Source: a virus (Duplodnaviria > Heunggongvirae > Uroviricota > Caudoviricetes). Taken from it: 15,791 bases of DNA. Position numbers and translations under genes: made by a program. The DNA is taken from the IMG/VR virus record IMGVR_UViG_2737471840_000001, positions 1 to 15,791 of that record; one strand, written 5' to 3'. Position 1 is the stretch's first letter. Every line of letters begins with the position of its first letter. Under the pieces are notes generated by a model. The model was not told the DNA's origin. It did no database searches and saw nothing but the letters and a program-made list of their open reading frames with translations. This document shows positions 1 through 15,775 of this stretch, piece after piece.

Positions 1-2109
1 ACCAGCAAATGCATCCTTCACCATGTCAGAAAACTCAAGGCGAAGATCAGCATCTTTAGGCATCGGAATACCTTTCGCATCATCAGTACCTTTACGAGCC
101 GCCGCGCCAGCAAGAATTGTCTGCGCAGCGGTTTCAGGAGACACGGAAACATCCGGATTAAACCAGTTTTTTTCTGCCAAAATACCACCAGGCTTGTCCA
201 TCAGTATCCCGGCAACGGCAGCAGATGGAGCGTTGGCACTGATCTGCTGTAGTGCTGACATATACACCTGCCCACCACCAGTGCTCTGCCTGATGGTATC
301 GAGATATGCTGCCTGTTGGGAAACTGGAGCATCACGAAAGAAAACACCGATCTGATTGGCCTCGTCTTTGGAAAAGAACGTCAGTGGAGTGCCATATGAC
401 TTAGCAAGGTCACTGACCTGAGCAGCACGCAAGGCAACGCTCTGTCCAAAGTTATCCTTATTGCTCATGTCGATAGGCTTTGCCTGTCCGGCGGCAAGAG
501 AGAACTGTACAGGATCAGCCTGTCTCTGCTTTATCACCTGACTTGCAGCCGACACAACGTTGTCATAAAGAGCGGCTCGTGCCGCATAACCCTCCCCTGT
601 CTCACCAGTATCCGGGCGTAATTGCTCAACATATGCTGTAATGCTGCTTGTCGGCATGTTGCGGAAAGAGCCTATATACTGTCCGGCGATTTGCGTATTT
701 CTGAACTCGGTATATCGCAGGTTTCCTTCTCTGACTCCATAAGCTGCAATAAAATCAGCCTCACCAGGTGGGTTAGGAAATTCAACGCCACGCATATACG
801 CAGCTGTCGCATCGCGAACTTGGCTGTCAATCATCGTTTTATATTCAGCCTGCTGCTGCCGACGCAGTTGATCCGCCTGTCGCATAAAACTTGCCTGCGC
901 CTCAGGAGATGCCGCATCGAATGCTGCATTACCGGTATAGCGTTTGGTGTTGGTTGGAATTGTTGATAAACCAAGTGCTGCACTGACACCAGCAGTTAAC
1001 TGCTGATCACTGTATGGCTGGCTACCGTTCTCATGATGGATAATGGCTGCACAAAGCGCCTTCAGGGTATCAGGATTAGATGCATCGAGAGGCTCATCAG
1101 CAGAAACGCCAAGTTGTTCGCACACTGCTTTGATATACGACATAGTGTCATTTTTATCAGTAGGCGGTGCCCAGCGATTAATTATCTCGCTGACGGTATC
1201 AATACCCTGTCTCTGATACGACATCAGGTTCCGCCCTAATGCACGAATCCCGTGTTCAGGTGTTTCGAATTTAGCAAATCGACCATCATCACCGGTCTGG
1301 CCTACCCACGGATTGGTTTTGCTGTATTCGAGATTTCCTGGGTTATTGTTGCGTATGCCACGGGCACGCTCGGAAGAATCACTATCTGCTACAGCACGGC
1401 GAGCTCCAGCAGCAGTATCACTTAACTCGCCATTACTTTGGATGAATGCGGTCGCATTGTTTGCCGACCACTGGGACAATGCTGCATCAGCAACCTTCTC
1501 TTTAAACTCGATTTTCTTGGCCTGGATTTGCTCGTCGCTCCAGCCATGCGCAATGCCGTAATCCTCAATTTGCTGGAAAGTTTGCTTATTAGCCAATACG
1601 TATGCGGCGTTGTCGCCATACAATGCTGCGGCATTTTTACCATTGTTCAGCAGCGTAGCCTGAAACTGGCCTTCTTCGTAGGCATTTATTTGCCCTATCT
1701 CGTGCCGCCCGGCCTGCGTAGTGAACTGAATGCGCTGCTGCTGCGCCTGCTGCATGAAAGCATTACGAGCCTGTTCATCCGGCAGCGACATAGCCAGTTG
1801 CTCGACCTGGGCATCAAACTGCTGCGTATACTCCTGACCTTTTCCAATAGCATTTTTCCCTTTCAGGTTAAGCAAACCTGTTTCAGGGTTATTCAGCAGA
1901 TCGCTGCTTATCTGGCTTAAGCTAAGAGAAGCATCCTGAGCCATAGCAACATTCGCACGCTGTTTTGCCTGCGCAATAATACCTGCATATTGCTCTGCAA
2001 CATCGCCAAGTACATCACCGACATTTGGTGTCTGAAACGATGAGAATCCCTGCGTCGAAATCCCTCTGCTCTGAACCTGACGGCCCGATGTTGTTGGTAC
2101 AACTGGCAT
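1..2109 (-). CDS. Large virion internal/ejection-like protein (position of T7 gp15/gp16), 5' complete, 3' end beyond the window edge
   Basis: ATG at 2109 (MPVVPTTSGRQVQSRG...) preceded by AGGGGATAATAAG RBS. Frame checked open by hand at 1-60, 901-960, 1321-1380 and 1861-2109, and reaches position 1 in frame. Contains GIRNNNPGNLEY at about 1324-1359. Sits after gp13/gp14-like genes in the tail block. Confidence 0.6.
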   Translation of the reverse strand, partial: MPVVPTTSGRQVQSRGISTQGFSSFQTPNVGDVLGDVAEQYAGIIAQAKQRANVAMAQDASLSLSQISSDLLNNPETGLLNLKGKNAIGKGQEYTQQFDAQVEQLAMSLPDEQARNAFMQQAQQQRIQFTTQAGRHEIGQINAYEEGQFQATLLNNGKNAAALYGDNAAYVLANKQTFQQIEDYGIAHGWSDEQIQAKKIEFKEKVADAALSQWSANNATAFIQSNGELSDTAAGARRAVADSDSSERARGIRNNNPGNLEYSKTNPWVGQTGDDGRFAKFETPEHGIRALGRNLMSYQRQGIDTVSEIINRWAPPTDKNDTMSYIKAVCEQLGVSADEPLDASNPDTLKALCAAIIHHENGSQPYSDQQLTAGVSAALGLSTIPTNTKRYTGNAAFDAASPEAQASFMRQADQLRRQQQAEYKTMIDSQVRDATAAYMRGVEFPNPPGEADFIAAYGVREGNLRYTEFRNTQIAGQYIGSFRNMPTSSITAYVEQLRPDTGETGEGYAARAALYDNVVSAASQVIKQRQADPVQFSLAAGQAKPIDMSNKDNFGQSVALRAAQVSDLAKSYGTPLTFFSKDEANQIGVFFRDAPVSQQAAYLDTIRQSTGGGQVYMSALQQISANAPSAAVAGILMDKPGGILAEKNWFNPDVSVSPETAAQTILAGAAARKGTDDAKGIPMPKDADLRLEFSDMVKDAFAG

Positions 2110-2121
2110 CTTATTATCCCC

Positions 2122-2661
2122 TTATCGACCGGTTGGAGTGCCAACAGCAGCAGAAATCGGCGCAGCCTTCTGAGAGAATGGGCTCCACGTTCCTCCGCCC
2201 ATCTGGTATGCACCGTATGCTTTTAGTGGTGCCGTTAACAAAGTGCTGGTCATCGATGATTTAGCAGCCGACTGAGCAGCAGCCCCCTGTGCCTGAGCAT
2301 TCATTCCCTGAACCTGATACCCATATGCCTCACGCTGAGCATTATTCACTGTCGTTAACGCATCAAGAGTGCCGAACTGAGCATTATCCGCAAAAACGTC
2401 AAGAGCTGTTCCGCTACTTAATTCCGCACCGGTAGCCCCCATAGTGGCCGCCGCAGTTCCTGAGCGTTGACGCATTTCACGACGACGCTGATCCGCTTCA
2501 ATATTCCCACGATTGATTGAATCCTGTGCCTGAGCTTCAGCAATTTCAGCATTCCGATCAGCTATGGCTGACTGGTATTTTGCCTGCTTGCTCTGGCTGT
2601 ACATTGACGCGGCTGTGGATGCCACTGTGACGGCAACCAAAGCGATGGCTGGGTTACACAT
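2122..2661 (-). CDS. Internal virion protein B-like (gp14 position), hydrophobic N-terminus
   Basis: 179-aa ORF from the track. N-terminal MCNPAIALVAVTVASTAASMY looks like a membrane anchor, rest is Ala/Gln-rich. ATG at 2661 shares one base with the upstream stop (TAATG). Confidence 0.5.
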   Translation of the reverse strand: MCNPAIALVAVTVASTAASMYSQSKQAKYQSAIADRNAEIAEAQAQDSINRGNIEADQRRREMRQRSGTAAATMGATGAELSSGTALDVFADNAQFGTLDALTTVNNAQREAYGYQVQGMNAQAQGAAAQSAAKSSMTSTLLTAPLKAYGAYQMGGGTWSPFSQKAAPISAAVGTPTGR

Positions 2662-3125
2662 TATTTTCTCTCCATGTGAAATCTGTGGAAATTAAGACCA
2701 AGAGCACCATAAGGCGCGGCTTCTTCAAGCCTGAATCCAAGCCAGTGCAGCCATGCTTTGGCAACATGGTTTCGCTCGTCGACGTAGTTTTCCAGGTGCG
2801 GATAAACTGCCAGCATCTGCTGCAATACAGGGCGGCAGTGGCGCAGAAATGTCTTCTGATATTTTTCAATACGGCTGGTTCCGACCAGCCAGGGCGTACC
2901 ATTGCCACCGATCATTGACGCCGGAGATACGCCAAACATGGTTACCAGTTCTCCGTTCGCAAATCCTGACCAGGCCATAGTCGCAGTACGCAGACCAACA
3001 CGCAGCGCATCTTCGGTAGTCATCAGTGATACCGCATACAGTTCGTCAATATCAGCCTGACGAACATCCGGCAAAATCATCTGAAGATGCTCTTCGGTAG
3101 CGGGAATAATTCGAACATCGATCAT
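2661..3125 (-). CDS. Hypothetical virion protein (gp13 position by synteny)
   Basis: 154-aa ORF. ATG at 3125 shares one base with the stop of the 820-aa gene (TGATG), implying translational coupling. Confidence 0.5.
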   Translation of the reverse strand: MIDVRIIPATEEHLQMILPDVRQADIDELYAVSLMTTEDALRVGLRTATMAWSGFANGELVTMFGVSPASMIGGNGTPWLVGTSRIEKYQKTFLRHCRPVLQQMLAVYPHLENYVDERNHVAKAWLHWLGFRLEEAAPYGALGLNFHRFHMERK

Positions 3126-5587
3126 CAGAATCCCCCAACAGTAAGGCGAGGAATAACGGCAAGAACAGACAGCGGCAACGGGTCAAGCTGACGGATTTTT
3201 ACACGTCCGTTTTTGCCCCAGTTACTGTCCAGTTTCACTTCTACTTTTCCGGTAGCGTCATCAACAGGATCATCGTAGAACTCGAATTCACGCTGTGGAT
3301 ATTCGTACCATTTACCGCTGGGCGTAGTCGCCCAGATGCCGCGACTGGCATTCACAACCAGAGTAACTGACGGGATCACCTGTTTTTTGTCCAGCAGCGT
3401 TTCCTGTCCGTTAATGTTGATATCCAGTGTTTCGAATTCGGCAGTTATTGGCAGGCCGATGTGCACTACAGCCCCCGGAGATTCCAGCGTGACGGCACCT
3501 CCGGAAACCACTTTCTGTGGTTCCACGTTCGCATCAGAGAGAATGTTTACGGTCTGCCCTTCAAGATGAGACAGGCCTCCAAATGTCCGGCGCGCCATCT
3601 GCCAGTTCGTGGTGGCCACATTCCTGAGGGATGGCGGGACGTTCCTGTTAGCACGAACCACTACAGCGGTGTTGCTGGTTACAGAAATAATGTCGCAACG
3701 TAATTCTTTTGCGCCAGTATCAGGATCAGTTCCGGTATAAGGGAACTGTAGTTGCGCACCGACATCACTACTGGTGAAGTACGCACCACCAGAAACACTG
3801 ATTGTATATTCCGCACGGTAATCCCATTCACCAGAACCACCAGTGATGGTCATCGTTCTGTCAGACGTATTTCTTCCATCATAGCTAAGGCCAGAATCAA
3901 CAAAGAAAGCATCTTCATCGCTGGTAAATAAACGGCTGGACAGTCTCTCGATGTATCTCACTATTTGCCCGTTAACGGTTCGGTTAACGACGAAATACAC
4001 CGCATCTTCATTGCCTTCGCTGATACTGCACGTGCTTTCATATTTTCCGGTACTGGACTGTGGTGCCCATGCAAAAACCTGTTGATCACGCAAATAGGTC
4101 ATCACCAGTAATTTACCGTCATCACGAATGCAGAAGGCGCTGGAGTAAGGGACAATCGAGAAGCACCAGTCAACAATGCTGTGCTTCTGAAAAAGATGAT
4201 TGGCAAGGATGGTCAGGTCGTTCCCCTGATAGCCATCAACATCGAATGAGTAGGCCAGATCACGGACAACACTGCCTTTCTCCTGGACGAACAGAGCAAT
4301 ATTCGCCACAGCAATTGGTGGGACGTTGCTTGAGCCATTTGATCCCTGAGAGCTGAATGCAAATGATGATGGGGTTAACACTTTGTTCTGGTCACCGGTG
4401 ATGACGTACTCACCTCCGGAAGTCAGTGCCACCAGCGAACCGACATCAATCAGGTGGCGGATCTCATTAACCTGACGCCCGGCATAGGTGTAGATAATTC
4501 TGTCGTCATCCTGCGTAGGATTGCTTTTGCCAAAATCCTTATAATCCCCAGTACGGCTGGCCCAGATAGTCTGAGGGAACGCAGTCGATGCGGCGAAGTA
4601 AAGACGTTGTTGATAATAAACAACAGTGCCAGGATAACCATTAACACTGTTCCAGGCATATTTAGCCCATTTATAGCTGGCATTATCCTCGCCAACGACC
4701 TGCGAAGGGATATAGGAAATCACCTCAGCAGTTGCAGTAGTGCCATTTACAGCAGTTATACGGGCAATGCCAAAACCACTGTGCAGATACTCCCACTCAA
4801 TGCCAGTATCATCATCACCCGATCCACCCCAGCCATCCCATGATGTGCCTTCTGTATGCGAAGGGCGCAAAGTGCCTGTTTTGCCTGCTGTAACGGCGCG
4901 ATAGTAGTTACTGTCTGCACGGCGAATATCGCCAATCGACGTACTCTTACTGGTTTCCCATACCGGCACTGAATCCACTGCTGGCTGTTCCAGATAGAAC
5001 AATTTGCCTACCTGCTCCGCGCCAAAAATAGAGGCGCTTGCCGTTAACGTAATTGTCCCGGTGCTGGCGCTGGCATAAACCGTCACTGACTCGTCAATAT
5101 TGATATCTTCAAATGGCCCGTTCTTCGTTATCACATCAACCAGTTGCCAGTTGTCATGAGCATATCGGCGCAACTCTTTCGGCGGGTATGCCGGGTGAAC
5201 CAGCGTAAGCACGTCGGCGCTTTGCGTGAATTTAATTCGGAACAGATCGGCTTCAGTATATGGCGTGGCAATTTCATAAATAACATTGCTACTGTTCAGC
5301 ACCAACGCACCATCTTTGATAACGCGCATGTACTGGTGTCCGAACTCCAGAGCATAGGTCTGAACCGTCGAGAACTGGAACGGGATCAGGCGGCATTTCC
5401 GATTTGGGTATTTGGCGGCACCGACAAAACGCGTACCAGGTCGATTCTCAACGCCGCCATACTGCCGCACGATAAAGTTATCGCACTTGCGCAATGCCAC
5501 CTGGTACTTCGCCATGTCAATACGCCCGTACAACGACGGTCCAATCTCACCACCGGCAAAGCTGGGTTGGATCCAACTGATAGCCAT
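3125..5587 (-). CDS. Tail tubular protein B-like (T7 gp12-like nozzle protein)
   Basis: 820-aa ORF. Size and N-terminus (MAISWIQPSFAGGEIGPSLYGRID) resemble T7 gp12 as I recall it. Directly follows the gp11-like gene with a TGATG overlap. Confidence 0.6.
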   Translation of the reverse strand: MAISWIQPSFAGGEIGPSLYGRIDMAKYQVALRKCDNFIVRQYGGVENRPGTRFVGAAKYPNRKCRLIPFQFSTVQTYALEFGHQYMRVIKDGALVLNSSNVIYEIATPYTEADLFRIKFTQSADVLTLVHPAYPPKELRRYAHDNWQLVDVITKNGPFEDINIDESVTVYASASTGTITLTASASIFGAEQVGKLFYLEQPAVDSVPVWETSKSTSIGDIRRADSNYYRAVTAGKTGTLRPSHTEGTSWDGWGGSGDDDTGIEWEYLHSGFGIARITAVNGTTATAEVISYIPSQVVGEDNASYKWAKYAWNSVNGYPGTVVYYQQRLYFAASTAFPQTIWASRTGDYKDFGKSNPTQDDDRIIYTYAGRQVNEIRHLIDVGSLVALTSGGEYVITGDQNKVLTPSSFAFSSQGSNGSSNVPPIAVANIALFVQEKGSVVRDLAYSFDVDGYQGNDLTILANHLFQKHSIVDWCFSIVPYSSAFCIRDDGKLLVMTYLRDQQVFAWAPQSSTGKYESTCSISEGNEDAVYFVVNRTVNGQIVRYIERLSSRLFTSDEDAFFVDSGLSYDGRNTSDRTMTITGGSGEWDYRAEYTISVSGGAYFTSSDVGAQLQFPYTGTDPDTGAKELRCDIISVTSNTAVVVRANRNVPPSLRNVATTNWQMARRTFGGLSHLEGQTVNILSDANVEPQKVVSGGAVTLESPGAVVHIGLPITAEFETLDININGQETLLDKKQVIPSVTLVVNASRGIWATTPSGKWYEYPQREFEFYDDPVDDATGKVEVKLDSNWGKNGRVKIRQLDPLPLSVLAVIPRLTVGGF

Positions 5588-6192
5588 CAGGACAACCTCG
5601 CAATGGTAAACTCGTCAACCGGAGGCTGTGGTTCCTGTGATTCATTCTGGCTATGCGAGCCAGCACTAAGAATCACGCGATTGTACATATTGAGGGCAAA
5701 CGTACCGAGGTCTGCATTCCCAGTCAGCGCCATGTTAATAGCTGCCGCAAGACGCCAGGCCAACGCCTCCATAAAAATGGCATCAAACATGTTCACATCT
5801 GTAACGCGAGAGACATACTTGAGCCATGCCTGAGGCTGGTCTGTGTAGATCAACTTTCCTGTTCCGTTGGTGTCTGCACCAACTTCGTACTGAACGCGCA
5901 TTGCTGCTGTTGGATTGCGTACACCAGGAAGCATAATTTCAGTAATGCGCAGACAATCTGACGGGTACTGGTACGCATATTCCCAGTCAGGCGGTGGATT
6001 GCTCGTATCTGCAAGCGCCACGCGTTTGGTAGCAAAGTTCCAGTCAAAATCAGAAAGCACAGCATCACGACAGGCCTCAAAGTGCAGCGAACATTCCCCC
6101 GCTTCCTTGCTGGCTTCCGTCAGGCTGTTAATGCTGCGGCTGTTGCCAATATTGGACAGCGCACGATTACAGATCTCTACTACAGAGGCCAT
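5587..6192 (-). CDS. Tail tubular protein A-like (T7 gp11-like gatekeeper)
   Basis: About 201 aa from ATG at 6192 (the track start at 6195 is GTG). N-terminus MASVVEICNRALSNIGNSRSINSLTE resembles gp11-type proteins by recollection. Overlaps neighbouring genes at both ends. Confidence 0.5.
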   Translation of the reverse strand: MASVVEICNRALSNIGNSRSINSLTEASKEAGECSLHFEACRDAVLSDFDWNFATKRVALADTSNPPPDWEYAYQYPSDCLRITEIMLPGVRNPTAAMRVQYEVGADTNGTGKLIYTDQPQAWLKYVSRVTDVNMFDAIFMEALAWRLAAAINMALTGNADLGTFALNMYNRVILSAGSHSQNESQEPQPPVDEFTIARLS

Positions 6193-6515
6193 CACTCACC
6201 TCCGTTACCGTACAGAGTTTCAGCCGCTGATTTTTCTACATCCCCGGAAACAGGAGCGATCGCCATATCAGTGATCTGCAGATCGGCGCTGCGATTAACG
6301 CCATCGTTAGTTTCTCTGGCAGACAGGCCTCGAATAACAGCCTTTGCAGTTATCATCACTTCTGTTCCGACGCCCTGAGGTTGCGCCTTCAGCTTATTCA
6401 ATGTGTCGTTATTAAGAGTGATGCACAGCCCCCACGGGTATTCATCGCGAGTTCTGGTTTCTCCGCTCTCATCCTGGTAGCTGTCAGTGCCGGTTTTGAG
6501 GTTTACGAGTTCCAT
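6192..6515 (-). CDS. Hypothetical small virion protein (possible head-tail adaptor)
   Basis: 107 aa from ATG at 6515 (MELVNLKTG...), with AGGAG RBS 8 nt upstream. The track start at 6521 is GTG. Confidence 0.5.
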   Translation of the reverse strand: MELVNLKTGTDSYQDESGETRTRDEYPWGLCITLNNDTLNKLKAQPQGVGTEVMITAKAVIRGLSARETNDGVNRSADLQITDMAIAPVSGDVEKSAAETLYGNGGE

Positions 6516-6525
6516 ATACACTCCT

Positions 6526-6565: not shown

Positions 6566-6901
6566 TTACACGCCCAGTTCTTTACGCTTATCTGCGATCT
6601 TCTCGCGGAGCGTTTCGGCTTTGGCGTTATGGTGTGGCTTCTCGTTAAAGAGCAATTCGTACTCTTCACGGAGCTTATCCAGTTCACCATCATCTGACAT
6701 ATCGTTGATGATTTTGGTGCTGGTTGCTGCCATTGACACCTTTCCTGCTACCTTTGCTTTTGCCTGTCTGGCTGCATCGTTAACAGGTTCCAGTGCGCTA
6801 CCAGGCTCACCTTCGTATTCGATTTCTACCCCCTCCGGCCACAGAGTGTTATGGATATGAGAGAGGCGCAGAACGCGGTATCTTGGTTTCTCACCTGACA
6901 T
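6566..6901 (-). CDS. Hypothetical small virion protein
   Basis: About 111 aa from ATG at 6901 (MSGEKPRYRVL...), AGGTGA RBS. The track start at 6910 is GTG. Confidence 0.45.
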   Translation of the reverse strand: MSGEKPRYRVLRLSHIHNTLWPEGVEIEYEGEPGSALEPVNDAARQAKAKVAGKVSMAATSTKIINDMSDDGELDKLREEYELLFNEKPHHNAKAETLREKIADKRKELGV

Positions 6902-6911
6902 CAATATCACC

Positions 6912-7349
6912 TTAACCAGTTACTTTTGAGCGGATCGGATACGGCGTATTGGCATCAACATCAAGACTGATACCAGCAGTGAATTTGCCGGCCGTTAGTG
7001 GGCCAGTTGCGACGGAGTAGTTAACACGCAGATATCGCTGAACACCAGCAGGCACCTTTGCAGAAACAACTCGCTTACCTGCTGTCAGGGTGGCCTTTGC
7101 CAGTGCGCCACTATCATAAATAGTGGACCATGAGCTGTTATTCTCACTCGTCTGCAACTGGATGTTTACAGTTGCCTCACCACTTGCCGTGGCGGCTTCG
7201 TTAACCAGCACCCAAAACTCAAGCGGATAACCCACGCCGATATCGCGACGGTTTCCATCAATTGGACCGAGATCGATTACGTCAGTAGAAGCCGCGGTAT
7301 TCGTAACCGCCTGAGCTTCGGAGAACATCAACAGTTTGTCGGTGATCAT
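6912..7349 (-). CDS. Hypothetical structural protein immediately downstream of major capsid (possible decoration protein)
   Basis: 145-aa ORF, ATG at 7349 with GGAGAAAG RBS. Gly/Thr/Ala-rich composition typical of structural proteins. Assignment by position only. Confidence 0.5.
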   Translation of the reverse strand: MITDKLLMFSEAQAVTNTAASTDVIDLGPIDGNRRDIGVGYPLEFWVLVNEAATASGEATVNIQLQTSENNSSWSTIYDSGALAKATLTAGKRVVSAKVPAGVQRYLRVNYSVATGPLTAGKFTAGISLDVDANTPYPIRSKVTG

Positions 7350-8401: not shown

Positions 8402-9097
8402 TTATTTGCCATAGAGCACTTCGGCCGCACTACGCTGGCCTTCATTACCACCGGTGACCATGCCATCTTCAGACATCGCCTTTCCGATTTTCACGAACGT
8501 TTTGACCAGATCAGGGTGATTACCCAGCCCGGTGGTGTTCAGATATTCTTTGAGTTCAGGTGTCCCGAACTGATCAAGCGCACGCTGTGCGACGCTAAGG
8601 TTAGAAATCAACTTGTCGCCACCGATTTCTTTGTCAGCTTTTACATCCGCAGCCCACTGCTCGGTTGTTTTCTGCCAGGCTTCTGCCTGGCGCTGCTGAA
8701 CACCTGCCAGAATCTTCGGATAAGCATCAACCAGCTTTTGCGCTTGCTCGTTGGTCAGGTTAAGTTCTCGCGCCACCGGCTCGAATTCCTTCAACGCTTC
8801 TGTATCAAGCTCTACGCCTTCGGCAGCCTGAAACTCGTACTTCTCAGGCGCACCCTCTGGTTTATCGCCGCCCTTTTTTTCATCCTGCTTATCGTTTTCA
8901 GGCTTTTTGTCATCAGCAGGTTTATCGCCATCAGCAACAGGTTGTGGCTTATCGCCTTCCTGTTGTGATGGATCAACAACTGGAGCAGGGTTATCACCTG
9001 CAGGCGCTGACGGTTCTGACGCAGCCGGAGCTGCTCCACCATCGACTGGTTGCTCATTGCAAAGACGGCGATACAGCAAACGCTCAAATAAATTCAT
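8402..9097 (-). CDS. Scaffolding (capsid assembly) protein
   Basis: About 231 aa from ATG at 9097 (MNLFERLL...), AGGAG RBS. Low-complexity Pro/Asp/Lys/Glu-rich acidic region (PQPVADGDKPADDKKPENDKQDEKKGGDKPEGAPE). Lies between portal and capsid. Confidence 0.6.
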   Translation of the reverse strand: MNLFERLLYRRLCNEQPVDGGAAPAASEPSAPAGDNPAPVVDPSQQEGDKPQPVADGDKPADDKKPENDKQDEKKGGDKPEGAPEKYEFQAAEGVELDTEALKEFEPVARELNLTNEQAQKLVDAYPKILAGVQQRQAEAWQKTTEQWAADVKADKEIGGDKLISNLSVAQRALDQFGTPELKEYLNTTGLGNHPDLVKTFVKIGKAMSEDGMVTGGNEGQRSAAEVLYGK

Positions 9098-9099
9098 GA

Positions 9100-9396
9100 T
9101 CACTCCTGTTCACTGGCCTCTTTGGCCATCTTCAAATACTGTTCAGGGCAATGCGCCATAACGCGCTGAAACAGTTCCAGCGCCAGATTGCGTTGCCCCT
9201 CATTAAATGCCATTGCCATAGCGTCCATCGGTGAGATAGCGGAAAACACCCGGCCTTTCTCCAGCACAGACCAGACAACGCGACGCCCCTGTTCACTGCT
9301 CATGACAAAGCGAATGTCATCAATTTCACGCTGTGCCATGTCACGTTGCTTACGGGCGTTTTCTTCTTTCAGTTGATCATCTTCGTAATCTGTCAT
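9100..9396 (-). CDS. Hypothetical protein between portal and scaffold
   Basis: 98-aa ORF, ATG at 9396 overlapping the portal stop (ATGA). Acidic, helical-looking composition. Confidence 0.5.
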   Translation of the reverse strand: MTDYEDDQLKEENARKQRDMAQREIDDIRFVMSSEQGRRVVWSVLEKGRVFSAISPMDAMAMAFNEGQRNLALELFQRVMAHCPEQYLKMAKEASEQE

Positions 9397-11072
9397 TGTG
9401 ATTGCCCACCCTGACCACTAACTGCATTCGCCATAGCTGACAAAACACTCGGATCCGAAGTTTTAGCTTCGCTTAGCGTCTTGGCACCCTGTGCCGCCGC
9501 CATCCCCATCGCCATCATTTGTTGTTGCTGTTGTTGCTGTGCCCGTTGCTGGCGAGCCTGCTCAACCTGTTCCTGCGGAACAATGACGGTTGGAGACACT
9601 CCGGACATATCAGCGAATGCATCGATCGCCTGATCAACGTTGAGTTTGTCGAGAGCTTCTGGTTTCGCTTGCGCAAGTTGACCAATGAAGTTAACCGTGG
9701 ACGCCAGACTGGACAGGCCGATAGACTTCTGCGCCTGAGCCATGACAGAAATGTATTCGACCTTCAGGGGCATACCTTCCATCGCGTCAGGCGGTGGCGG
9801 CAGCATGTTTTTACGCACCATCATCGAGAAAGCGCGGTCAATGAGAGGATTAAGACATTCGTCGTTCAGACGCTCCAGAACCGGCCCCAACATCAGAAGT
9901 TTTTCTTCTTTCATTTCGATCACCGCTTCAACAGGCATCGAGCGGGTATTGATGTTCTGCAACATCATGAACAGATCGACAAAGTAGGCGCTGTTAATGA
10001 TTTGGCGGGTGTCCTGAATGTCTGCTACCAGATCTGCTGTACTGGGGTTAACCAGATAAGCAGGCCTGAAACCATCCTGACCAGTAATCTGATCGATATA
10101 CGTGATGTCGCCAGGAAGAAGGGAGGCGCGCTGATTCTTGAGGGAAGTCGGAGCAACCATCGGCGGATTGGTGGCTTTATCAATCAACTGCGACTTGCGC
10201 TTCTGGAGAAGCTGCAGTGCCTTAACAGGTCCAAGCGCCAGCATACCCGGGCATGATGATCCATAAACATCTTCGCCGTTAACTTCCCAGCGCGGAGCCA
10301 TAATTGGAAACTCATCGAATCCGGACTCACGCAACAACTTGTCGTTATCGCCACCAACCTCGTAATAAACCGATTTGAATGGCTTGTTCTTGCTATCCAG
10401 CTTCGATGTATCGCGGTCAATGTTCGGGTAAACCGAATGCATCACTTCAATCCACTTCTCGTAGGTGCCGCTTTCCCACATGCTTTTTACGGATTCGCTG
10501 ACGTTATTTAGCCCGAACTCCTGAACAAGCTGACGAACAGTCATAGAGAACTTGCGAAAACAGGTGTCCACACTGCCACGAGGTGAGTTAGCCAGGTAGT
10601 AACTGCCTATCGGGAATGGCATTGTGCGAATGATGTCCTCGTCATCCTCCAGCACTGCCATTGCACCAGTGCTGTATGTGCCGAGGCTTCCGTATAACTG
10701 CGGCAGAGACTGATAGAGATTCGACTTATTGAACATATCGTTCATGCGGTTCTGCACCGCCTCAAGCCACAACTTAACAGGGCCATAATCCATCATTTCA
10801 GGATCTGGCGTAGCCAGGCGAAACCACGGACGCGCGGGGCTTGTGATGCCTGACATCATGCCGCTGGCGAGAGTGCGCGCCGCCATAGTCCCGGTCGAAT
10901 CAATAATGCGTGTATTGCGTCGATCGTTACGGTTGACCTCTGAAGTCAGAAAGCGGGAACCACGCGGGTTGATGTAATCACTCAACTCGCGCCAGTGCGG
11001 CTCGAACGACTGACGCTCGCTTTCAAGTTGTGCGAACTGTTTGTTCAATCGCTCTTTAGTTGTTTCCGCCAT
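9393..11072 (-). CDS. Portal (head-to-tail connector) protein, T7 gp8-like
   Basis: 559-aa ORF immediately downstream of the terminase region. Gln/Ala/Met-rich C-terminal tail (QQRAQQQQQQQMMAMGMAAAQG...) resembles T7-type connectors as I recall them. ATG at 11072 with GGAG RBS. Confidence 0.75.
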   Translation of the reverse strand: MAETTKERLNKQFAQLESERQSFEPHWRELSDYINPRGSRFLTSEVNRNDRRNTRIIDSTGTMAARTLASGMMSGITSPARPWFRLATPDPEMMDYGPVKLWLEAVQNRMNDMFNKSNLYQSLPQLYGSLGTYSTGAMAVLEDDEDIIRTMPFPIGSYYLANSPRGSVDTCFRKFSMTVRQLVQEFGLNNVSESVKSMWESGTYEKWIEVMHSVYPNIDRDTSKLDSKNKPFKSVYYEVGGDNDKLLRESGFDEFPIMAPRWEVNGEDVYGSSCPGMLALGPVKALQLLQKRKSQLIDKATNPPMVAPTSLKNQRASLLPGDITYIDQITGQDGFRPAYLVNPSTADLVADIQDTRQIINSAYFVDLFMMLQNINTRSMPVEAVIEMKEEKLLMLGPVLERLNDECLNPLIDRAFSMMVRKNMLPPPPDAMEGMPLKVEYISVMAQAQKSIGLSSLASTVNFIGQLAQAKPEALDKLNVDQAIDAFADMSGVSPTVIVPQEQVEQARQQRAQQQQQQQMMAMGMAAAQGAKTLSEAKTSDPSVLSAMANAVSGQGGQSQ

Positions 11073-11086
11073 TTCAATGACTCCGG

Positions 11087-11293
11087 TTACTGACCAAGCA
11101 GCGTTTTACCGCTGGTATTAGCGGTTGATGTGTCGCCCTGAGAACCGGTAAGCAGCGTAGAACTACGACCAGCAGCAGCGCGACGGCGACGAGTTTCTTC
11201 GTCGCGGGCATCAACAACGGCGGCATCCTGCTCCTGTGGTGCTGCCTGAACTTCTGGTGTTGCAGGCACTGACGGTGAGCTACCCATGCACAT
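11087..11293 (-). CDS. Candidate small low-complexity protein upstream of portal
   Basis: 68-aa ORF, ATG at 11293, preceded by CGGAGTCATTGA, the same 12-nt RBS context found in front of the portal ATG. Composition is Ala/Arg/Thr/Ser-rich; coding status uncertain. Confidence 0.35.
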   Translation of the reverse strand: MCMGSSPSVPATPEVQAAPQEQDAAVVDARDEETRRRRAAAGRSSTLLTGSQGDTSTANTSGKTLLGQ

Positions 11294-11439: not shown

Positions 11440-11721
11440 TTAAATTGAACAGGTGGAGTGAGCTTTTATTTTGAGCAGTACGGCGTATGGCACATGCGCC
11501 GATAGCGGTCTGGATACGTTTAAGGGGCACCCTCCCTTGCTCGGGCAAACGAACCAGGTAGCCGGAATGTGCAAGTCGAGCGGTTTTATTCCGCGCACGG
11601 GGATTCACCATCCCGGCGATTCGGTGTGACGCCTCGGAAGAGACGAGGGTACAACGATGAGAGCATTTATGGAGCCGCGACAAAGTGTGGCGCACTTAAC
11701 AGGCTAAGTGCTCTCAGCGTT
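11440..11721 (+). ncRNA. Candidate structured non-coding RNA or long leader upstream of tRNA-Arg
   Basis: About 280 nt of GC-rich sequence with no credible ORF on either strand. Local hairpins: TTGC-tcgg-GCAA (11537-11548), GCGG-N7-CCGC (11580-11594), GGGAT-N5-ATCCC (11600-11614), CCTCG-N7-CGAGG (11632-11648). Boundaries and strand are not determined. Confidence 0.3.
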
Positions 11722-11798
11722 GTGGCATTAGCTCAGTTGGACAGAGCAACCGCCTTCTAAGCGGTTGGTCGCAGGTTCGAATCCTGCATGCCACGCCA
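11722..11798 (+). tRNA. tRNA-Arg (anticodon UCU), argU-like, with encoded CCA
   Basis: Hand-folded cloverleaf: acceptor GTGGCAT/ATGCCAC, D-arm GCTC-AGTTGGACA-GAGC, anticodon stem ACCGC/GCGGT with loop CTTCTAA, T-arm GCAGG-TTCGAAT-CCTGC, discriminator G, CCA. Body closely resembles enterobacterial argU from memory. Confidence 0.9.
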
Positions 11799-11884: not shown

Positions 11885-11962
11885 CAGCAGGACGCCATTG
11901 CGATGACTTCATGCTGTAAACCAGTACAGCCACGGAAGGCATAACTCATTGCTTCCAGTTCT

Positions 11963-11986: not shown

Positions 11987-11998
11987 AAGGTGAAAATC

Positions 11999-12331
11999 AT
12001 GAAAGAGAAGACTGCAGCTGAGCGCTATGCCGCAGCTATCAATGCCGCGATGGCGATTGTAAACCTGCGTGAAGAGATTAAAGATCTCCTTGCAATTATC
12101 CATAACAACCTGACATGTACAGAGTTGCTTGGCGGTCAGTACAACGGTGAGGCGGTGAAGGAGGCATTTAAAAATGCCGAGGTAGGAATAATTCCAGCAA
12201 ACTATGTCAAGGCTGAATGTGTGCTCCTAAAGGCACGAGTGAGTCTGCATGAAGATCCTGGTAATCTCGGTCGAACTGCAATGCGTTACGTGATAGACGA
12301 GTCGAATGCCAAACACAATCTACCGAAATAA
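11999..12331 (+). CDS. Orphan hypothetical protein (110 aa), moron-like, opposite to the morphogenesis operon
   Basis: ATG at 11999 with AAGGTG RBS 6 nt upstream (the track start at 11990 is GTG). Product MKEKTAAERYAAAINAAMAIVNLREEIKDLL... has no recognised motif. Uses rare ATA, CTA and CGA codons and looks lower in GC than neighbours. Bracketed by terminators. Confidence 0.6.
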   Translation: MKEKTAAERYAAAINAAMAIVNLREEIKDLLAIIHNNLTCTELLGGQYNGEAVKEAFKNAEVGIIPANYVKAECVLLKARVSLHEDPGNLGRTAMRYVIDESNAKHNLPK

Positions 12332-12334
12332 CAC

Positions 12335-12348
12335 CGTGACATGTCACA
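12335..12348. repeat. CGTGACATGTCACA, copy 1 (perfect 12-bp palindrome GTGACATGTCAC inside)
   Basis: Exact 14-bp match to 14600-14613. Lies 4 nt after the stop of the 110-aa ORF and before the terminator at 12352-12380. Confidence 0.8.
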
Positions 12349-12351
12349 AAC

Positions 12352-12380
12352 AGCCAGCCTATGAGCTGGCTTTGTTTTAT
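12352..12380 (+). terminator. Intrinsic terminator after the 110-aa ORF
   Basis: AGCCAGC (12352-12358) pairs with GCTGGCT (12365-12371), loop CTATGA, then TTGTTTTAT. The opposite strand has an A-tract before the hairpin, so it is unidirectional for plus-strand transcripts. Confidence 0.6.
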
Positions 12381-12421
12381 CCTCACCAGAGGATATCAAC
12401 GACATTATCCCCACCAGCGGA

Positions 12422-13897
12422 TTAAGCATAGGGATCGTAATCTGTGATGGCCTTGCCTTGCTGGTTCTGCTGACCGGGAATTCGCAGACGCTTCGACACA
12501 GGGAACGCAAACGTCAGCAGTAGCGCATCGCCTTTACCAGGAGAACGCCCAAGTCGCTCTTTGATATCTTCCTTCGGTTCGATAACGATTTTACCGTCCA
12601 CTCGAACTTTGTACTCTGCTGCCGACAGGTCGTCCGCTGTTTCCTGGTCATCCAGCATGCCGCCCAGCCTCAGCCATGTCTTGCATGAATTGAACATCTC
12701 CCCACGCTTGTTGAGCATCTGCGGGTCAGTAGACGCGCCACCGAACGGAACAAGTTGCCATGTACGACCCCATCCGTCACCGATTGACTTCAGACCGGTT
12801 CCGTAACCGAAGTCGATGAACACCGCGTCAGCCTGATACTGGTCTTCAAAGTCAGCGATACGCTTCGCCATAATCAGATCGTCGGTAGTCTTGTTGCCAG
12901 TCCACAGCACCTTACTGTGTAGCCCCTGCCGCAGGTATATCACCGCGTCATCAACGCCTGAATATGCCGGGTCAACACCGATTATCACCGGAGCATGCGC
13001 CACCTGCGCAGCGGTTACCACCCGTTTCATTGCCTCATCAGTAAGACCGGTAGGGATAAACTGCAATTCAGATGCATCAGGGAATATGCCGCGCACACGG
13101 ATTTTAACGAAGTCGCTGTCTTCCCCGTAGTCATCAACCCATTTCTGCAACTGCTGTTTGTTAGTGCCTTCCACCGTTCGGCTGTCAATCTGCGCAGTTT
13201 TCCAGCGGTGTTTATATTTGCGGAAACATTCACGGAATCGCCCGGTATTACGCGTCGGGTTTCCGAACGCCACCCAGATAATCTCAGTGTCTTCGTCCGT
13301 TAGCGCACCTTCGGCAACTTCCCACACCAGATCCGCAATGTTCGACGCTTCATCGAATACCACGATGATGCGTTTGCGCTCGTTGTGTAGTCCGGCGAAT
13401 GCCTCAGTGTTGTGCTCAGACCAGGGGATTGCGTCAGCTCGCCACCGCTTGTCGTGCCCAGGATCATTGCTGTACATCGCGGTAGCGGTACAGGTAAACC
13501 AGTCTTTCGTGATAGCAAGGTTCGACCACTTGATAATTTCCGGCCAGGTCTTCGTTCGTAGCTGGTTGTCGGTGTTGGCGGTCACCACGACCTTACAATC
13601 CTCGCAAGTGGACATGCCCCAGTTGATCAGCATTGAGATGAATGCGGATTTACCAATACCGTGACCAGAAGCACGTGCCAGCATAAGCGGCTGATATCGC
13701 GTCTCTGGATTCTGCAGGTGATCACGTATCTCTCGGAACGCATCGGCCTGCCACTGACGTGGACCGGTGGCATGTGCCAGTTCAGTACCCTCTTCCCCCC
13801 ACGGGAACGCATAGAGGGCATAGCCAAGCGGATCGTGAGTGAACCCTGCAATATCCTCGATTAACTGCTCTTCAGGAGATAACGCTGTATCTGTCAC
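12422..13897 (-). CDS. Terminase large subunit
   Basis: 491-aa ORF with a P-loop/Walker A motif (ASGHGIGKS) near the N-terminus and an acidic nuclease-type segment (VDPAYSGVDDAVIY) in the C-terminal half. GTG start at 13897 overlapping the terminase small stop (GTGA). Confidence 0.85.
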   Translation of the reverse strand: MTDTALSPEEQLIEDIAGFTHDPLGYALYAFPWGEEGTELAHATGPRQWQADAFREIRDHLQNPETRYQPLMLARASGHGIGKSAFISMLINWGMSTCEDCKVVVTANTDNQLRTKTWPEIIKWSNLAITKDWFTCTATAMYSNDPGHDKRWRADAIPWSEHNTEAFAGLHNERKRIIVVFDEASNIADLVWEVAEGALTDEDTEIIWVAFGNPTRNTGRFRECFRKYKHRWKTAQIDSRTVEGTNKQQLQKWVDDYGEDSDFVKIRVRGIFPDASELQFIPTGLTDEAMKRVVTAAQVAHAPVIIGVDPAYSGVDDAVIYLRQGLHSKVLWTGNKTTDDLIMAKRIADFEDQYQADAVFIDFGYGTGLKSIGDGWGRTWQLVPFGGASTDPQMLNKRGEMFNSCKTWLRLGGMLDDQETADDLSAAEYKVRVDGKIVIEPKEDIKERLGRSPGKGDALLLTFAFPVSKRLRIPGQQNQQGKAITDYDPYA

Positions 13898-14490
13898 TGA
13901 TTGCCATCCTGACGTTCTTTCAGTCTCTTCCTGGCTGCCGCTATGCGATCAGCAATTGTCACATTCACATTAACATCCAGGCGTTCTTTGAATGCGTTGA
14001 CGTCGACGTGCTTACCAATCAGTTCGAGGTTCTTCACCTTGTCAGGCCATTTAATTTTTTTGAGGATTGTCTCTATCGAATCCTCGTTCATGTTCATGAT
14101 GGTCGATGACAGATCAAAGCCACTAAGCGTAGTGCGCCAGATTTTCGGCCACTCGCGGATTGGCTTAAGACTCCCATCGTCGTTGAGGATATCAATCACG
14201 TCCATCTGGTCGATCTCCACCAGGCGCATGAGAACGTAATCAGCACTGACGCGCATTCGTTTGTTGCGCTCCTCCATCAACTCGGCAATCCGTTTTTGAA
14301 TGCGTTCATCACGCATCATGACACTGGCTTTAACTGCCGCTGTATTTGGGGAGAATCCTGCGTTAATCGCTGCCTGAGTCTGGTTTTCAGGCGTTTTGAT
14401 GTATGACTGGCAATAAGCCTCCTGCATTGCTGTTAGTGGCTTAAATTGCGTTGATTTGCGTTTATAGGTTTTAGGTTCAGCAGGCATCAT
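13894..14490 (-). CDS. Terminase small subunit (Terminase_2-like)
   Basis: Conserved N-terminal signature LTAMQEAYCQSYIKTPENQTQAAINAGFS fits the Terminase_2 family pattern as I recall it. Start moved from the track's 14568 to the internal ATG at 14490 (MMPAEPK...) because a terminator hairpin and tandem repeats occupy 14498-14561. Confidence 0.7.
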   Translation of the reverse strand: MMPAEPKTYKRKSTQFKPLTAMQEAYCQSYIKTPENQTQAAINAGFSPNTAAVKASVMMRDERIQKRIAELMEERNKRMRVSADYVLMRLVEIDQMDVIDILNDDGSLKPIREWPKIWRTTLSGFDLSSTIMNMNEDSIETILKKIKWPDKVKNLELIGKHVDVNAFKERLDVNVNVTIADRIAAARKRLKERQDGNQ

Positions 14491-14497
14491 AACCACC

Positions 14498-14529
14498 GTG
14501 GTAATAGTTACCGTTGTGGTAATAGTACC
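14498..14529. repeat. Tandem imperfect repeat GTGGTAATAGTTACC / GTGGTAATAGTACC, each internally palindromic
   Basis: Copies at 14498-14512 and 14516-14529, separated by GTT. Located between the terminator hairpin and the terminase small start. A possible extended -10 element (TGGTACTAT on the minus strand, plus coordinates 14522-14530) overlaps copy 2. Confidence 0.6.
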
Positions 14530-14530
14530 A

Positions 14531-14561
14531 TGCAAAATAAAGCCGCCATAGTTGGCGGCAG
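14531..14561 (-). terminator. Intrinsic terminator upstream of the terminase genes
   Basis: Minus strand reads CTGCCGCC-AACTAT-GGCGGC followed by TTTATTTTG; plus-strand stem at 14542-14547 and 14554-14559. Confidence 0.5.
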
Positions 14562-14599
14562 TATTCAAAACCCATCAAATTCATCATGCATAATCTACT

Positions 14600-14613
14600 C
14601 GTGACATGTCACA
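14600..14613. repeat. CGTGACATGTCACA, copy 2
   Basis: Exact 14-bp match to 12335-12348. Overlaps the stop codon of the 115-aa minus-strand ORF and lies just upstream, in the minus-strand sense, of the terminator at 14531-14561. Confidence 0.8.
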
Positions 14614-14956
14614 CTATTAATTTCGTTTCATGCCAGCCTTTAGTCACCCAGCATTGCGAGTCACCATTACACGGGCATGAATTCACAGGAACTCTCTCGC
14701 CGCACTTACCGCAACGTTTTCTGCTGATCGATTTTATACGCCCGCGCACGCGTGCATCATCCTGGCGGATCAGTAACGCTATATACTCACCAAATTCGTA
14801 AGGCGCACGCCCGGGGCGACGTGTGGCACAGTTACGCTCCAGCATTTCAATTTCCTGAGCATCAAGCACAATCTCCAGCTTACGTACACCGGATTCAGCT
14901 TGTCTGGCTCTCTGAGCGGCTTTGCGTTCTGCGGGGGATTTAGCCACGAATCGCAC
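14609..14956 (-). CDS. Hypothetical protein with basic N-terminus and C-terminal cysteine cluster (possible zinc-ribbon or nucleic-acid-binding protein)
   Basis: 115-aa ORF with no ATG; GTG at 14956 or 14947, the latter with GGAG 8 nt upstream. C-terminus CGKCGERVPVNSCPCNGDSQC. Function unknown. Confidence 0.45.
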   Translation of the reverse strand: MRFVAKSPAERKAAQRARQAESGVRKLEIVLDAQEIEMLERNCATRRPGRAPYEFGEYIALLIRQDDARVRGRIKSISRKRCGKCGERVPVNSCPCNGDSQCWVTKGWHETKLIV

Positions 14957-15062
14957 TCCACGCCAGATTGATTAATGACTCCCAGGCAATATAAACCCGG
15001 ATACCAGCAGCCAGGCCGAAACCAATCACCATGGCATAAAGCAGAGCGTTGCACTTGTTCAT
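14940..15062 (-). CDS. Candidate 40-aa single-pass membrane peptide
   Basis: ATG at 15062 overlaps the stop of the DUF551 gene. Product MNKCNALLYAMVIGFGLAAGIRVYIAWESLINLAWSAIRG has one hydrophobic helix. The 65-aa track ORF would overlap the upstream gene by 76 nt, so the internal start is preferred. Confidence 0.35.
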   Translation of the reverse strand: MNKCNALLYAMVIGFGLAAGIRVYIAWESLINLAWSAIRG

Positions 15063-15775
15063 CACTTCACCTCCTGCGGCGGTTCTGGTAGCGGCATCCA
15101 GTGTGACGGTTTCCACGACGCACCAGGAATTATCCACCCATCATTAGCGTCAGGATGCCCGGGGATGTAAGTAGCCCATTTCATTCGCCAGTCACCTTTC
15201 CTGTCAAACTCCACGGCAACAAGAACGGCTGTTTTGGTATTCGGCATTCGCTCACTACAGCTTATCCAACCATCCGGAGTTGCCGGAGAGTTGCCCGATA
15301 GCTGGTTCAACTTGTAAGTTTGGCTTACAGGTTCGGCACCATGAAGCATGGCGTCGCTCCGCTCTATGCCATCCAGCGCGATTCGCAGTGCCTGAATTGT
15401 GGTAGAGCTATCGTTTGGGGCTATTCCATATCGCTCGAATACAGCTAAATGGTTGCGCATAATCTCAGGCGTAAGCTCTTTGTAAGCATAAGCAAGAGGC
15501 TCTGATGCATTATCCGGCACAACCGACGCAGGCGCGGCAGCATAAACAGGAATAACGTCCGCTTGCTCTTTATTGCTTTCATCCGTTAAAGACCAGAATA
15601 ATTTCCCGGCCGGATGTTTGAAAATATAAGCAACTGGATCTGCTTCCAGCGATGCCAGCGCAATTCGTGCCAGTTCTTCCGCCTCTTCTGCTGGCAGTAC
15701 AACGTTGCTACCAGGTCCGTATGTTTCGCGCCACTGCTTGATTGTCAGTAGTCGCTCTTTGGTAATAGTGATCAT
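15062..15775 (-). CDS. DUF551-domain phage protein
   Basis: 237-aa ORF, ATG at 15775 with AAGGAA RBS. C-terminus ...DGWIIPGASWKPSHWMPLPEPP matches the DUF551 signature common in enterobacterial lambdoid prophages, from memory. Confidence 0.6.
   Translation of the reverse strand: MITITKERLLTIKQWRETYGPGSNVVLPAEEAEELARIALASLEADPVAYIFKHPAGKLFWSLTDESNKEQADVIPVYAAAPASVVPDNASEPLAYAYKELTPEIMRNHLAVFERYGIAPNDSSTTIQALRIALDGIERSDAMLHGAEPVSQTYKLNQLSGNSPATPDGWISCSERMPNTKTAVLVAVEFDRKGDWRMKWATYIPGHPDANDGWIIPGASWKPSHWMPLPEPPQEVK

Follow-up and report, generated by a model that had tools for sequence, protein, structure and literature searches.

Salmonella phage epsilon15, the type of the genus Uetakevirus, has a virion that was described by cryo-electron microscopy (PDB 3J40), and phage phiV10 and its relatives are classified in the same genus. 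The epsilon15 proteins gp12, gp13, gp14 and gp17 have been reported as homologous to tail and core proteins of phage T7, with gp13 assigned as a homologue of internal virion protein A (IVP-A) and gp17 as a homologue of IVP-D (PMC4819975). Hardies et al. found a strong match between the hidden Markov models of epsilon15 gp12 and T7 gp12 in the central domain, covering T7 residues 354-556 (PMC4819975), and the terminase and capsid genes of epsilon15 were found to group with those of siphoviruses, which was read as an ancient transfer between families (PMC4819975). The RefSeq record of epsilon15 likewise carries the remark 'gp11; HHpred: 3j4b_A Tail tubular protein A {T7}'. Here we compare these systems with a stretch of 15,791 nucleotides, positions 1 to 15,791 of the IMG/VR virus record IMGVR_UViG_2737471840_000001, which is referred to as the window throughout. 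The window is almost certainly the late region (packaging, head, and tail) of a phiV10-type Uetakevirus prophage of Escherichia coli, extending from the final early gene into the ejection-protein cluster, most of which it includes. It represents a 15.8 kb part of the element, with the tailspike gene, the equivalents of gp16 and gp17, the integrase and the repressor lying outside.

This assignment is carried by DNA identity, protein identity, and gene order. In a megablast comparison with 50,697 phage genomes, phiv142-3, the O157 typing phages 9 and 10, vB_EcoP_ZX5, PAS61, and phiV10 aligned to 86-90% of the window at 98% nucleotide identity, while epsilon15 matched the window at 76% nucleotide identity. 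The values for phiV10, the typing phages, and ZX5 refer to the 15.8 kb of the window, the rest of the genome being outside it. The genus criterion of the International Committee on Taxonomy of Viruses is about 70% nucleotide identity over the whole genome. At the protein level, 14 of the 15 genes having a phiV10 counterpart showed 95-100% identity, the exception being gp14 at 64%, and all 17 expected reading frames were intact and of full length when compared with phiV10. The late-gene order, namely TerS-TerL-(cargo)-gp3-portal-gp5-protease-MCP-cement-gp9-gp10-gp11-gp12-gp13-gp14-gp15 (MCP, major capsid protein), equals the annotation of phiV10 and epsilon15 gene for gene, and the order from a Terminase_2-type small terminase subunit to a transglycosylase is also found in Bordetella phage BPP-1. 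Since the gene order is shared with epsilon15 and BPP-1, the combination of genes is old and conserved. From 15775 to 1, every long reading frame of the late block is encoded by the minus strand, with a plus-strand insert of about 1.1 kb between TerL and gp3. The G+C content varies little along the window and is close to 50%.

Of 5,426 complete E. coli genomes, 303 contained 80% or more of the window and 2,917 contained some match to it. The prophage context was inspected in 2 of these 303 genomes, and both prophages were about 40 kb long, located beside guaA, and equipped with a tyrosine integrase, a helix-turn-helix (HTH) repressor, lambda-P-like replication genes, RecT, a tailspike, and a lysis cassette. 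A sequence-only reading of this stretch had described a T7-type short-tailed virion module combined with lambdoid-type genes and had considered such a temperate podovirus mosaic not to be the textbook case. The portal, gp11-like, gp12-like, and gp13-16-like genes which it listed are all present on the minus strand in the order it gave. Its view of the mosaic as unusual does not hold, as the window is 98% identical to phiV10 and its relatives and the element is of an already characterised phage type in which this "mosaic" is ordinary; a fully characterised phage type was the very outcome which that reading had named as speaking against its claim.

By comparing the window with individual relatives, we identified which parts are constant and which vary. 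phiV10 and its relatives (the O157 typing phages 9 and 10, vB_EcoP_ZX5, phiv142-3, PAS61, and TL-2011b) share the gene order, an identical tRNA-Arg, and an upstream non-coding element that is 99% identical, whereas the cargo reading frame of phiV10 is an Sf6-gene-66/Gp49-family gene and that of the window is a different gene, orf110. epsilon15 has the same gene order and is close in TerL (95% identity), portal (81%), adaptor (85%), and nozzle (88%), but differs in the MCP (43%), the cement protein (37%), gp9 (39%), and the staple (41%), and it has no tRNA. BPP-1 (Rauchvirus; capsid PDB 3J4U) shares the order TerS-TerL-portal-Bbp19-protease-MCP-Bbp16-adaptor-nozzle-core-transglycosylase, and at 62% identity its MCP resembles that of the window more than the epsilon15 MCP does. 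It differs in its host, in a tropism cassette of the diversity-generating retroelement type, in a shorter nozzle (681 aa), in a gp10-like gene placed elsewhere, and in a TerS that is not detectably similar to the window TerS by tblastn. The closest solved structures are those of the Carin-1 phage (PDB 8CJZ, 8CK0, and 8CK1) and the Legionella LME-1 phage (PDB 9EFK). Carin-1 matches the window in the portal, the nozzle (45% identity), the connector, and the MCP (E = 1.2e-87), and LME-1 orf17 and orf18 match the adaptor and the nozzle, although both phages have other hosts and their identities are lower (32-45% for Carin-1 and 16-19% for LME-1). A literature search for 8CK1 found nothing.

The relation to T7 required a different kind of evidence. 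BLASTP and tblastn against the T7 late region gave no significant match for any of the 18 window proteins; the "motifs" which the sequence-only reading had cited, together with gene order, as pointing to T7 therefore cannot be shared sequence motifs, and profile and fold tests were needed. By those tests, which used Pfam, profiles, and folds, the T7-type functions did stand. The portal (9393..11072, minus strand) matched over its full length the T7 gp8 head-to-tail connector family PF12236 (E = 1.6e-187), and it also matched the PDB chain 8ck0_A 'Portal protein' (E = 5.7e-179) and was 81% identical to epsilon15 gp4. The tail adaptor or connector (5587..6192, minus strand), the counterpart of epsilon15 gp11, showed no PF17212 match and no BLASTP similarity to T7 gp11, while a phmmer search of PDB sequences retrieved the 8CK1 'Connector Protein' (8ck1_E, E = 3.9e-26) and 9EFK orf17. 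An AlphaFold2 model of the adaptor, built from 33 homologues, reached a mean predicted local distance difference test (pLDDT) score of 88, and a Foldseek search of the PDB ranked, in this order, the Carin-1 connector, the LME-1 adaptor, the cyanophage A4 and P-SCSP1u adaptors, the PhiM1 adaptor, T7 gp11, the Klebsiella Kp7 and Kp9 adaptors, and KP32 TTPA. The match to T7 gp11 (7box_N) had E = 4.3e-6, a probability of 1.00, template modelling (TM) scores of 0.59/0.61, and 13% identity. As modelled, the adaptor has the fold of T7 gp11, tail tubular protein A.

A comparable picture was obtained for the tail nozzle (3125..5587, minus strand), the counterpart of epsilon15 gp12, which matched the 8CK1 'Tail Nozzle' (8ck1_A, E = 2.1e-218) across its full length by phmmer. 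The first homologue search returned only sequences of at least 82% identity, which were useless for modelling, and searches with representatives and profiles were used instead; the family comprises 18,284 representatives at 50% clustering (E <= 0.001). A profile of 37 diverse members reached a chain of 793 aa designated 'nozzle gp13' (23sh_T, E = 6e-6), and its alignment to T7 gp12 by hhalign (E = 5.9e-5) covered T7 residues 350-466. The window nozzle itself has no match to PF25675 ('Phage_nozzle', the family of T7 gp12), whereas homologues about 50% identical to it have precomputed PF25675 matches. In Foldseek, the ten best matches to the AlphaFold2 model of the nozzle were all podophage nozzles, T7 gp12 (8e4g_P) was matched with E = 1.7e-13 and a TM score of 0.43, and the list beyond nozzles consisted of generic beta-propellers with TM scores of about 0.1. 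BLASTP found no similarity between the nozzle and T7 gp12. The nozzle is thus distantly homologous to T7 gp12 (tail tubular protein B), and the homology check which the sequence-only reading had proposed for its gp11 and gp12 assignments came out in favour of kinship, remote in both cases and visible by Foldseek and, for the nozzle, hhalign. Residues 355-463 of the nozzle are the sole stretch with a sequence-level likeness to T7 gp12, yet they are the worst modelled by AlphaFold2 (pLDDT 28-48), and these residues may fold in the hexamer only.

The genes that follow the nozzle extend this relation to the core. gp13 (2661..3125, minus strand) is a putative internal virion protein in the IVP-A position, as indicated by phrog_308 'internal virion protein' (E = 2.4e-62), by synteny with T7 gene 13, and by the literature. 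gp14 (2122..2661, minus strand), an internal virion or ejection protein, matched the T7_gp14 family PF24072 above the curated cut-off (E = 8.2e-8). gp15 is present as an open frame of 703 N-terminal codons that runs off the window (1..2109, minus strand), with matches to phrog_992 and phrog_7182 'tail injection transglycosylase'. Its residues 249-398 matched Gp29 (9vvp_L, 1295 aa, residues 3-146; E = 2.7e-38) and the endolysin 7q47 (E = 2e-17), and in one relative it is annotated as 'transglycosylase SLT domain' by the Prokaryotic Genome Annotation Pipeline (PGAP). Such a peptidoglycan-hydrolase (transglycosylase- or endolysin-like) domain is what would be expected if, as with T7 gp16, an ejection protein brings along a cell-wall hydrolase.

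Taken against T7 (Autographiviridae), the window has the same portal Pfam family, the same adaptor and nozzle folds, the same gp14 Pfam family, a hydrolase domain on a core protein, and the same order of portal, adaptor, nozzle, and core. It differs in that there is no pairwise similarity, structural alignments having 10-13% identity, and in that T7 is without protease, cement, and staple genes and has its terminase genes at the other end of the module, with a small subunit of another type. T7 is moreover lytic with its own RNA polymerase, whereas the relatives of the window have an integrase and a repressor. With respect to Autographiviridae features, the T7 late region gave no tblastn match and no RNA polymerase is annotated in the near-identical prophages. 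The T7 link is remote, is seen by profile and fold only, and has already been published for epsilon15.

The lambdoid component was examined through the genes at the right end of the window. The terminase small subunit (13894..14568, minus strand) is of the Terminase_2 (SPP1/SF6) type (PF03592, E = 1.4e-29) and is 99.6% identical to the phiV10 protein and 77% identical to that of epsilon15, whose record relates TerS to Bacillus phage SF6 (HHpred 3zqp). All of its phage homologues with at least 70% identity come from Uetakeviruses or epsilon15-like Klebsiella phages, and no lambdoid or Shiga toxin (Stx) phage was present among 128 TerS matches. Neither TerS nor the tRNA is an import from lambdoid phages, both being part of the Uetakevirus lineage. 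The DUF551-domain protein (15062..15775, minus strand; 237 aa; PF04448 at residues 169-234, E = 2.2e-21) presents a different case. Its gene shares separate patches of 93-98% nucleotide identity with Stx1a and Stx2a phages, TL-2011b and TL-2011c, and Lyz12581Vzw, where it is often annotated as EaA or DUF551, and it has no counterpart in the compared phiV10 or epsilon15 loci. It is the last gene of the early or nin-like region, lies outside the virion module, and is the only gene with recent lambdoid DNA sharing. No lambdoid phage was found among the DNA matches covering the module (positions 1-14568), the lambdoid sharing being confined to 15062-15775. Of the lambdoid-type genes named in the sequence-only reading, the DUF551 gene therefore retains that status by its Stx and lambdoid patches, while TerS, whose close homologues are from Uetakeviruses or epsilon15-like phages, and the tRNA, which is 100% identical in phiV10, lose it. 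Between TerS and the DUF551 gene lies a small protein (14609..14956, minus strand, with a start probably at 14947) which matched phrog_536 (E = 4.7e-54), is called 'transcriptional regulator' in PHROGs and NinX in ZX5, and had no Pfam or NCBIfam match. PADLOC returned no defence-system match for orf110, the DUF551 protein, or this NinX-like protein.

These results allow other origins of the stretch to be weighed. A scenario in which a T7-like phage of the Autographiviridae recently recombined with a lambdoid prophage would be in line with the patches that the DUF551 gene shares with Stx and lambdoid phages, with the lambda-P-like replication gene and RecT in the early region of related prophages, and with terminase and capsid lineages that differ from those of T7 at a deep level (PMC4819975). 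Such an event is nevertheless highly improbable and effectively refuted, as no window protein is pairwise similar to T7, the full order from TerS to the core proteins is kept in epsilon15 and BPP-1, so that the combination is ancient, TerS has its near relatives exclusively among Uetakeviruses, phiV10 carries the very same tRNA, which differs from those of Stx phages, and the DNA shared with lambdoid phages lies only outside the virion module. A virion module of the P22 (Lederbergvirus) kind has practically no chance of being correct: the portal belongs to PF12236 and is of the T7 type, the Foldseek matches of the adaptor model to P22 gp4 complexes all had E > 0.5 and TM scores of about 0.3, and no P22-like phage occurs among the DNA matches covering the module. 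These observations refute it, even though a temperate enterobacterial podovirus with an ejection-protein cluster would suit P22 and some trees group the ejection proteins of epsilon15 with those of P22 (PMC8954989). A decayed, non-inducible prophage remnant is somewhat less remote, though still unlikely. Only part of the element is visible, partial copies are common (2,917 genomes with some match vs 303 with at least 80%), and one related prophage has frameshifted genes elsewhere, but against decay stand the 17 intact, full-length frames and the 98% identity to isolated infectious phages.

The assignment to a phiV10-type Uetakevirus prophage also has points that weigh against it. The comparison covers 15.8 kb, whereas the genus is defined by identity over the whole genome; the gp14 allele has diverged to 64% identity with that of phiV10; the orf110 cargo gene occurs in no deposited phage genome; the DUF551 end of the window is without a phiV10 counterpart; this copy may not be inducible; and the nozzle model is moderately confident (pLDDT 73) and poor at residues 355-463, the region that aligns with T7 gp12. 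The published homology analysis of epsilon15 and T7 agrees with the assignment (PMC4819975; PMC8954989).

From homologues with solved virion structures (epsilon15, BPP-1, Carin-1, LME-1, and T7), we infer a scheme for assembly and ejection, including its order, stoichiometries, and mechanism. The SF6/SPP1-type TerS together with TerL would package DNA through the T7-gp8-type portal into an HK97-fold procapsid, which would be built of the GP7-family capsid protein with the protease or scaffold. The matured shell would be strengthened by the Bbp16-type cement protein and the gp10 staple. A ring of the gp11-type adaptor would bind the portal, and the gp12-type nozzle would shut the channel and bear the tailspikes, while gp13, gp14, gp15, and downstream proteins would be packed as an internal core. 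At infection, the core proteins would be ejected, with the gp15 hydrolase domain digesting peptidoglycan and the channel being extended across the envelope.

The remaining genes of the module are those of packaging and the head. The terminase large subunit (12422..13897, minus strand) was recognised by phrog_2 (E = 9.9e-53) and is 99.4% identical to the phiV10 protein and 94.7% identical to epsilon15 TerL; it found no match in Pfam or in the PDB sequence search. The gp3 homologue (11087..11293, minus strand; 68 aa; phrog_831), which is 100% identical to phiV10p06 and 88% identical to epsilon15 gp3, immediately precedes the portal gene in every Uetakevirus. Downstream of the portal, a Bbp19-like small protein (9100..9396, minus strand; PF25181, E = 2.8e-17) is homologous to epsilon15 gp5, and a putative head maturation protease or scaffold (8402..9103, minus strand, with a start probably at 9097) matched phrog_458 'protease' (E = 9.8e-111) and is 73% identical to its homologue epsilon15 gp6 and 47% identical to BPP-1 Bbp18. 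The shell genes follow on the same strand. They comprise the HK97-fold MCP of the GP7 family (7401..8393; PF20911, E = 2.1e-149; BPP-1 MCP 3j4u_A, E = 9.5e-129; epsilon15 gp7 3j40_A, E = 2e-85), the Bbp16-family capsid cement protein (6912..7349; PF21190, E = 3.6e-49; PGAP 'Bbp16 family capsid cement protein'), the gp9 homologue (6566..6910, start probably at 6901; phrog_590, E = 2.9e-60; 39% identical to epsilon15 gp9), and the gp10-like capsid staple or decoration protein (6192..6521, start probably at 6515; PF21628 Gp10-like, E = 1.3e-51; PGAP 'capsid staple protein'). Pfam and NCBIfam together gave no match for the adaptor, nozzle, TerL, gp13, gp15, gp9, protease, or orf110.

Within this conserved order, a finer mosaicism was observed. 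When compared with epsilon15, TerL, portal, adaptor, and nozzle are 81-95% identical, whereas the MCP, cement, gp9, and staple proteins are 37-43% identical, and there is no nucleotide match to epsilon15 across 6203-8438. Together with an MCP that is closer to BPP-1 (62%) than to epsilon15 (43%), this indicates a capsid-shell cassette (6192-8393) that would have diverged or been exchanged within the genus. The shell divergence is a property of the whole phiV10 branch and not of this copy. gp14, on the other hand, is 64% identical to phiV10 vs 95-98% for the flanking genes, and in related prophages the gp14 gene measures 540, 546, or 576 bp, a pattern that probably reflects replacement of the allele of just one ejection protein.

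Between the terminase and portal genes, and antisense to the late genes, lies a cargo slot on the plus strand (11294-12421) that holds a non-coding element, the tRNA-Arg, and orf110, units which are accessory and not structural and each of which has a terminator-like hairpin behind it. The tRNA-Arg (11722..11798, plus strand; ARAGORN; Rfam RF00005, 73.3 bits) has the anticodon UCU, which reads AGA, and it is followed by a terminator-like hairpin with a 15-bp stem and a T tail (11841-11878) according to a terminator scan. The sequence-only reading had called it argU-like. It shares the anticodon and the codon read with argU, and its sequence agrees with K-12 argU at only 64 of 77 positions (83%), with the differences being paired changes in the acceptor and anticodon stems. 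It shows 82-84% identity to the argO of Stx phages over 57 aligned nucleotides. Judged by its sequence, it is a phage isoacceptor with the decoding role of argU rather than a copy of argU. The tRNA is missing from epsilon15, from BPP-1, and from one otherwise similar E. coli prophage, and is therefore an optional cargo of the lineage. In the window genes, 4.3 of every 1000 codons are AGA, about double the E. coli mean, and this enrichment is a modest one as a rationale for the tRNA. In the phiV10 record NC_007804.2, the identical tRNA-Arg(UCU) stands unannotated at 13223-13299, and the 'hypothetical protein' PhiV10p04 (13229-13480, opposite strand) is annotated over it, probably a mis-annotation.

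The last unit of the slot, orf110, is a cargo or 'moron' gene convergent with TerL (11999..12331, plus strand), flanked by a short hairpin with a T-run before it (11963-11977) and a terminator-like hairpin after it (12352-12371). It matched phrog_27507 (E = 3.9e-75), while Pfam, NCBIfam, and a tblastn search of the 50,697 phage records gave no match. Two of the 5,426 E. coli genomes carry it, and about 250 have a Gp49/DUF2829-family gene in the same slot. Of the two orf110 carriers, genome BCE049 is without the tRNA, and the slot is therefore combinatorial. A consensus promoter scan of 11000-12600 found none. By eye, a perfect TTGACA is seen at 11362-11367 with a weak -10 sequence 17 nucleotides downstream, from which the slot might be expressed.

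The first unit is the conserved element directly upstream of the tRNA (11478..11721, plus strand), which was recognised by conservation and covariation. It spans about 170-190 nucleotides, from 11478 to approximately 11667, which is its core, and reaches 11721 in some relatives. A blastn search with 11470-11721 retrieved 83 phage records. Its hosts include Uetakeviruses of Escherichia, Salmonella, Enterobacter, and Klebsiella, the lambdoid phages mEp460, cdtI, 2H10, Ayreon, and Stx2a, Stx2c, and Stx2k phages, one Stenotrophomonas phage, and P1, P7, D6, SJ46, and RCS47. The element occurs in 1,840 of the 5,426 complete E. coli genomes (34%), including 554 plasmid places, and never with an annotated feature. 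An invariant 19-mer, GGTAGCCGGAATGTGCAAG, occurs once in the window (0.01 expected by chance). It is contained in 24 stretches from GTDB species representatives, almost exclusively Enterobacteriaceae, as well as in more than 120 IMG/VR contigs. The exact 19-mer also appears in two contigs of metagenome-assembled genomes assigned to Firmicutes (Oscillospiraceae bacterium and Bacillota bacterium), which are likely mis-binned enterobacterial prophage DNA. No Rfam 15 family matched the element at E <= 10 on either strand, and a literature search for an 18-mer of the element found nothing. The Rfam 'Plastid-ycf2' match was rejected as an antisense match of the tRNA far below the gathering score.

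Evidence for a folded RNA was obtained from an alignment of 13 sequences, from which RNAalifold derived a consensus of 29 pairs in six helices, with covariation also counted in 96 distinct variants. Of the alignment cells, 97.6% are paired vs 29-44% when the partners are slid, and 23 cells are changed on both sides vs 8.2 in shuffles, with none of 500 shuffles reaching 23; these covariation statistics use a null that is not phylogeny-aware. Across the 96 variants, compensatory exchanges are seen at pairs 6/18 (GC 69, AU 25), 32/91 (UA 52, CG 44), 144/156 (CG 65, GC 28), 146/154 (AU 63, CG 22, UG 11), 178/190 (UA 70, CG 22), and 179/189 (CG 52, GC 38). As many G-U pairs exist on the plus strand only, the RNA would be plus-strand. 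A GCACAU/AUGUGC pairing over a longer distance may be formed in addition.

The genomic context of the element varies with its host. In lambdoid and related prophages it lies 150-250 nucleotides downstream of, and on the same strand as, a repressor gene of the cI/LexA type (HTH_3 + Peptidase_S24). Its position in P1 and SJ46 is between tciC (plus trnI in P1) and ban, and Uetakeviruses have it in the cargo slot, where a tRNA may or may not follow. A coding region was rejected, as the indels are not multiples of three and annotated reading frames over the element are on the opposite strand only, and so was a repeat of the ERIC/REP type, for which there was only a 10-nucleotide coincidence with the ERIC consensus. 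A cis-regulatory leader was considered and set aside, such a role being unlikely because the downstream genes differ in every context. For the element as a whole, the arguments are about evenly balanced as to whether it constitutes an undescribed structured RNA family, one that would have at least five covariation-supported helices and several invariant unpaired blocks, be absent from Rfam 15 and never annotated, be present in about one-third of complete E. coli genomes, and behave as a 'moron' among unrelated temperate phages. From its placement, the best guess is that prophages express it as a mobile RNA acting in trans, with manipulation of the host, defence, or counter-defence as examples of a conceivable role, and it may be the one item of the window that is new.

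For the biology of the family, the virion module itself matters little, as the temperate podovirus genus is known and both the kinship to T7 and the non-T7 lineage of terminase and capsid have already been published. Of practical use are the findings that the phiV10 reference record is without an annotation of its tRNA, an antisense reading frame being annotated over it, and that the shell genes of the phiV10 branch are nearer to BPP-1 than to epsilon15. The slot between terminase and portal is a hot spot for accessory elements. If the structured element is confirmed as such, a very common unannotated structured RNA of lambdoid, P1-like, and epsilon15-like prophages would provide a new handle on prophage expression in lysogens.

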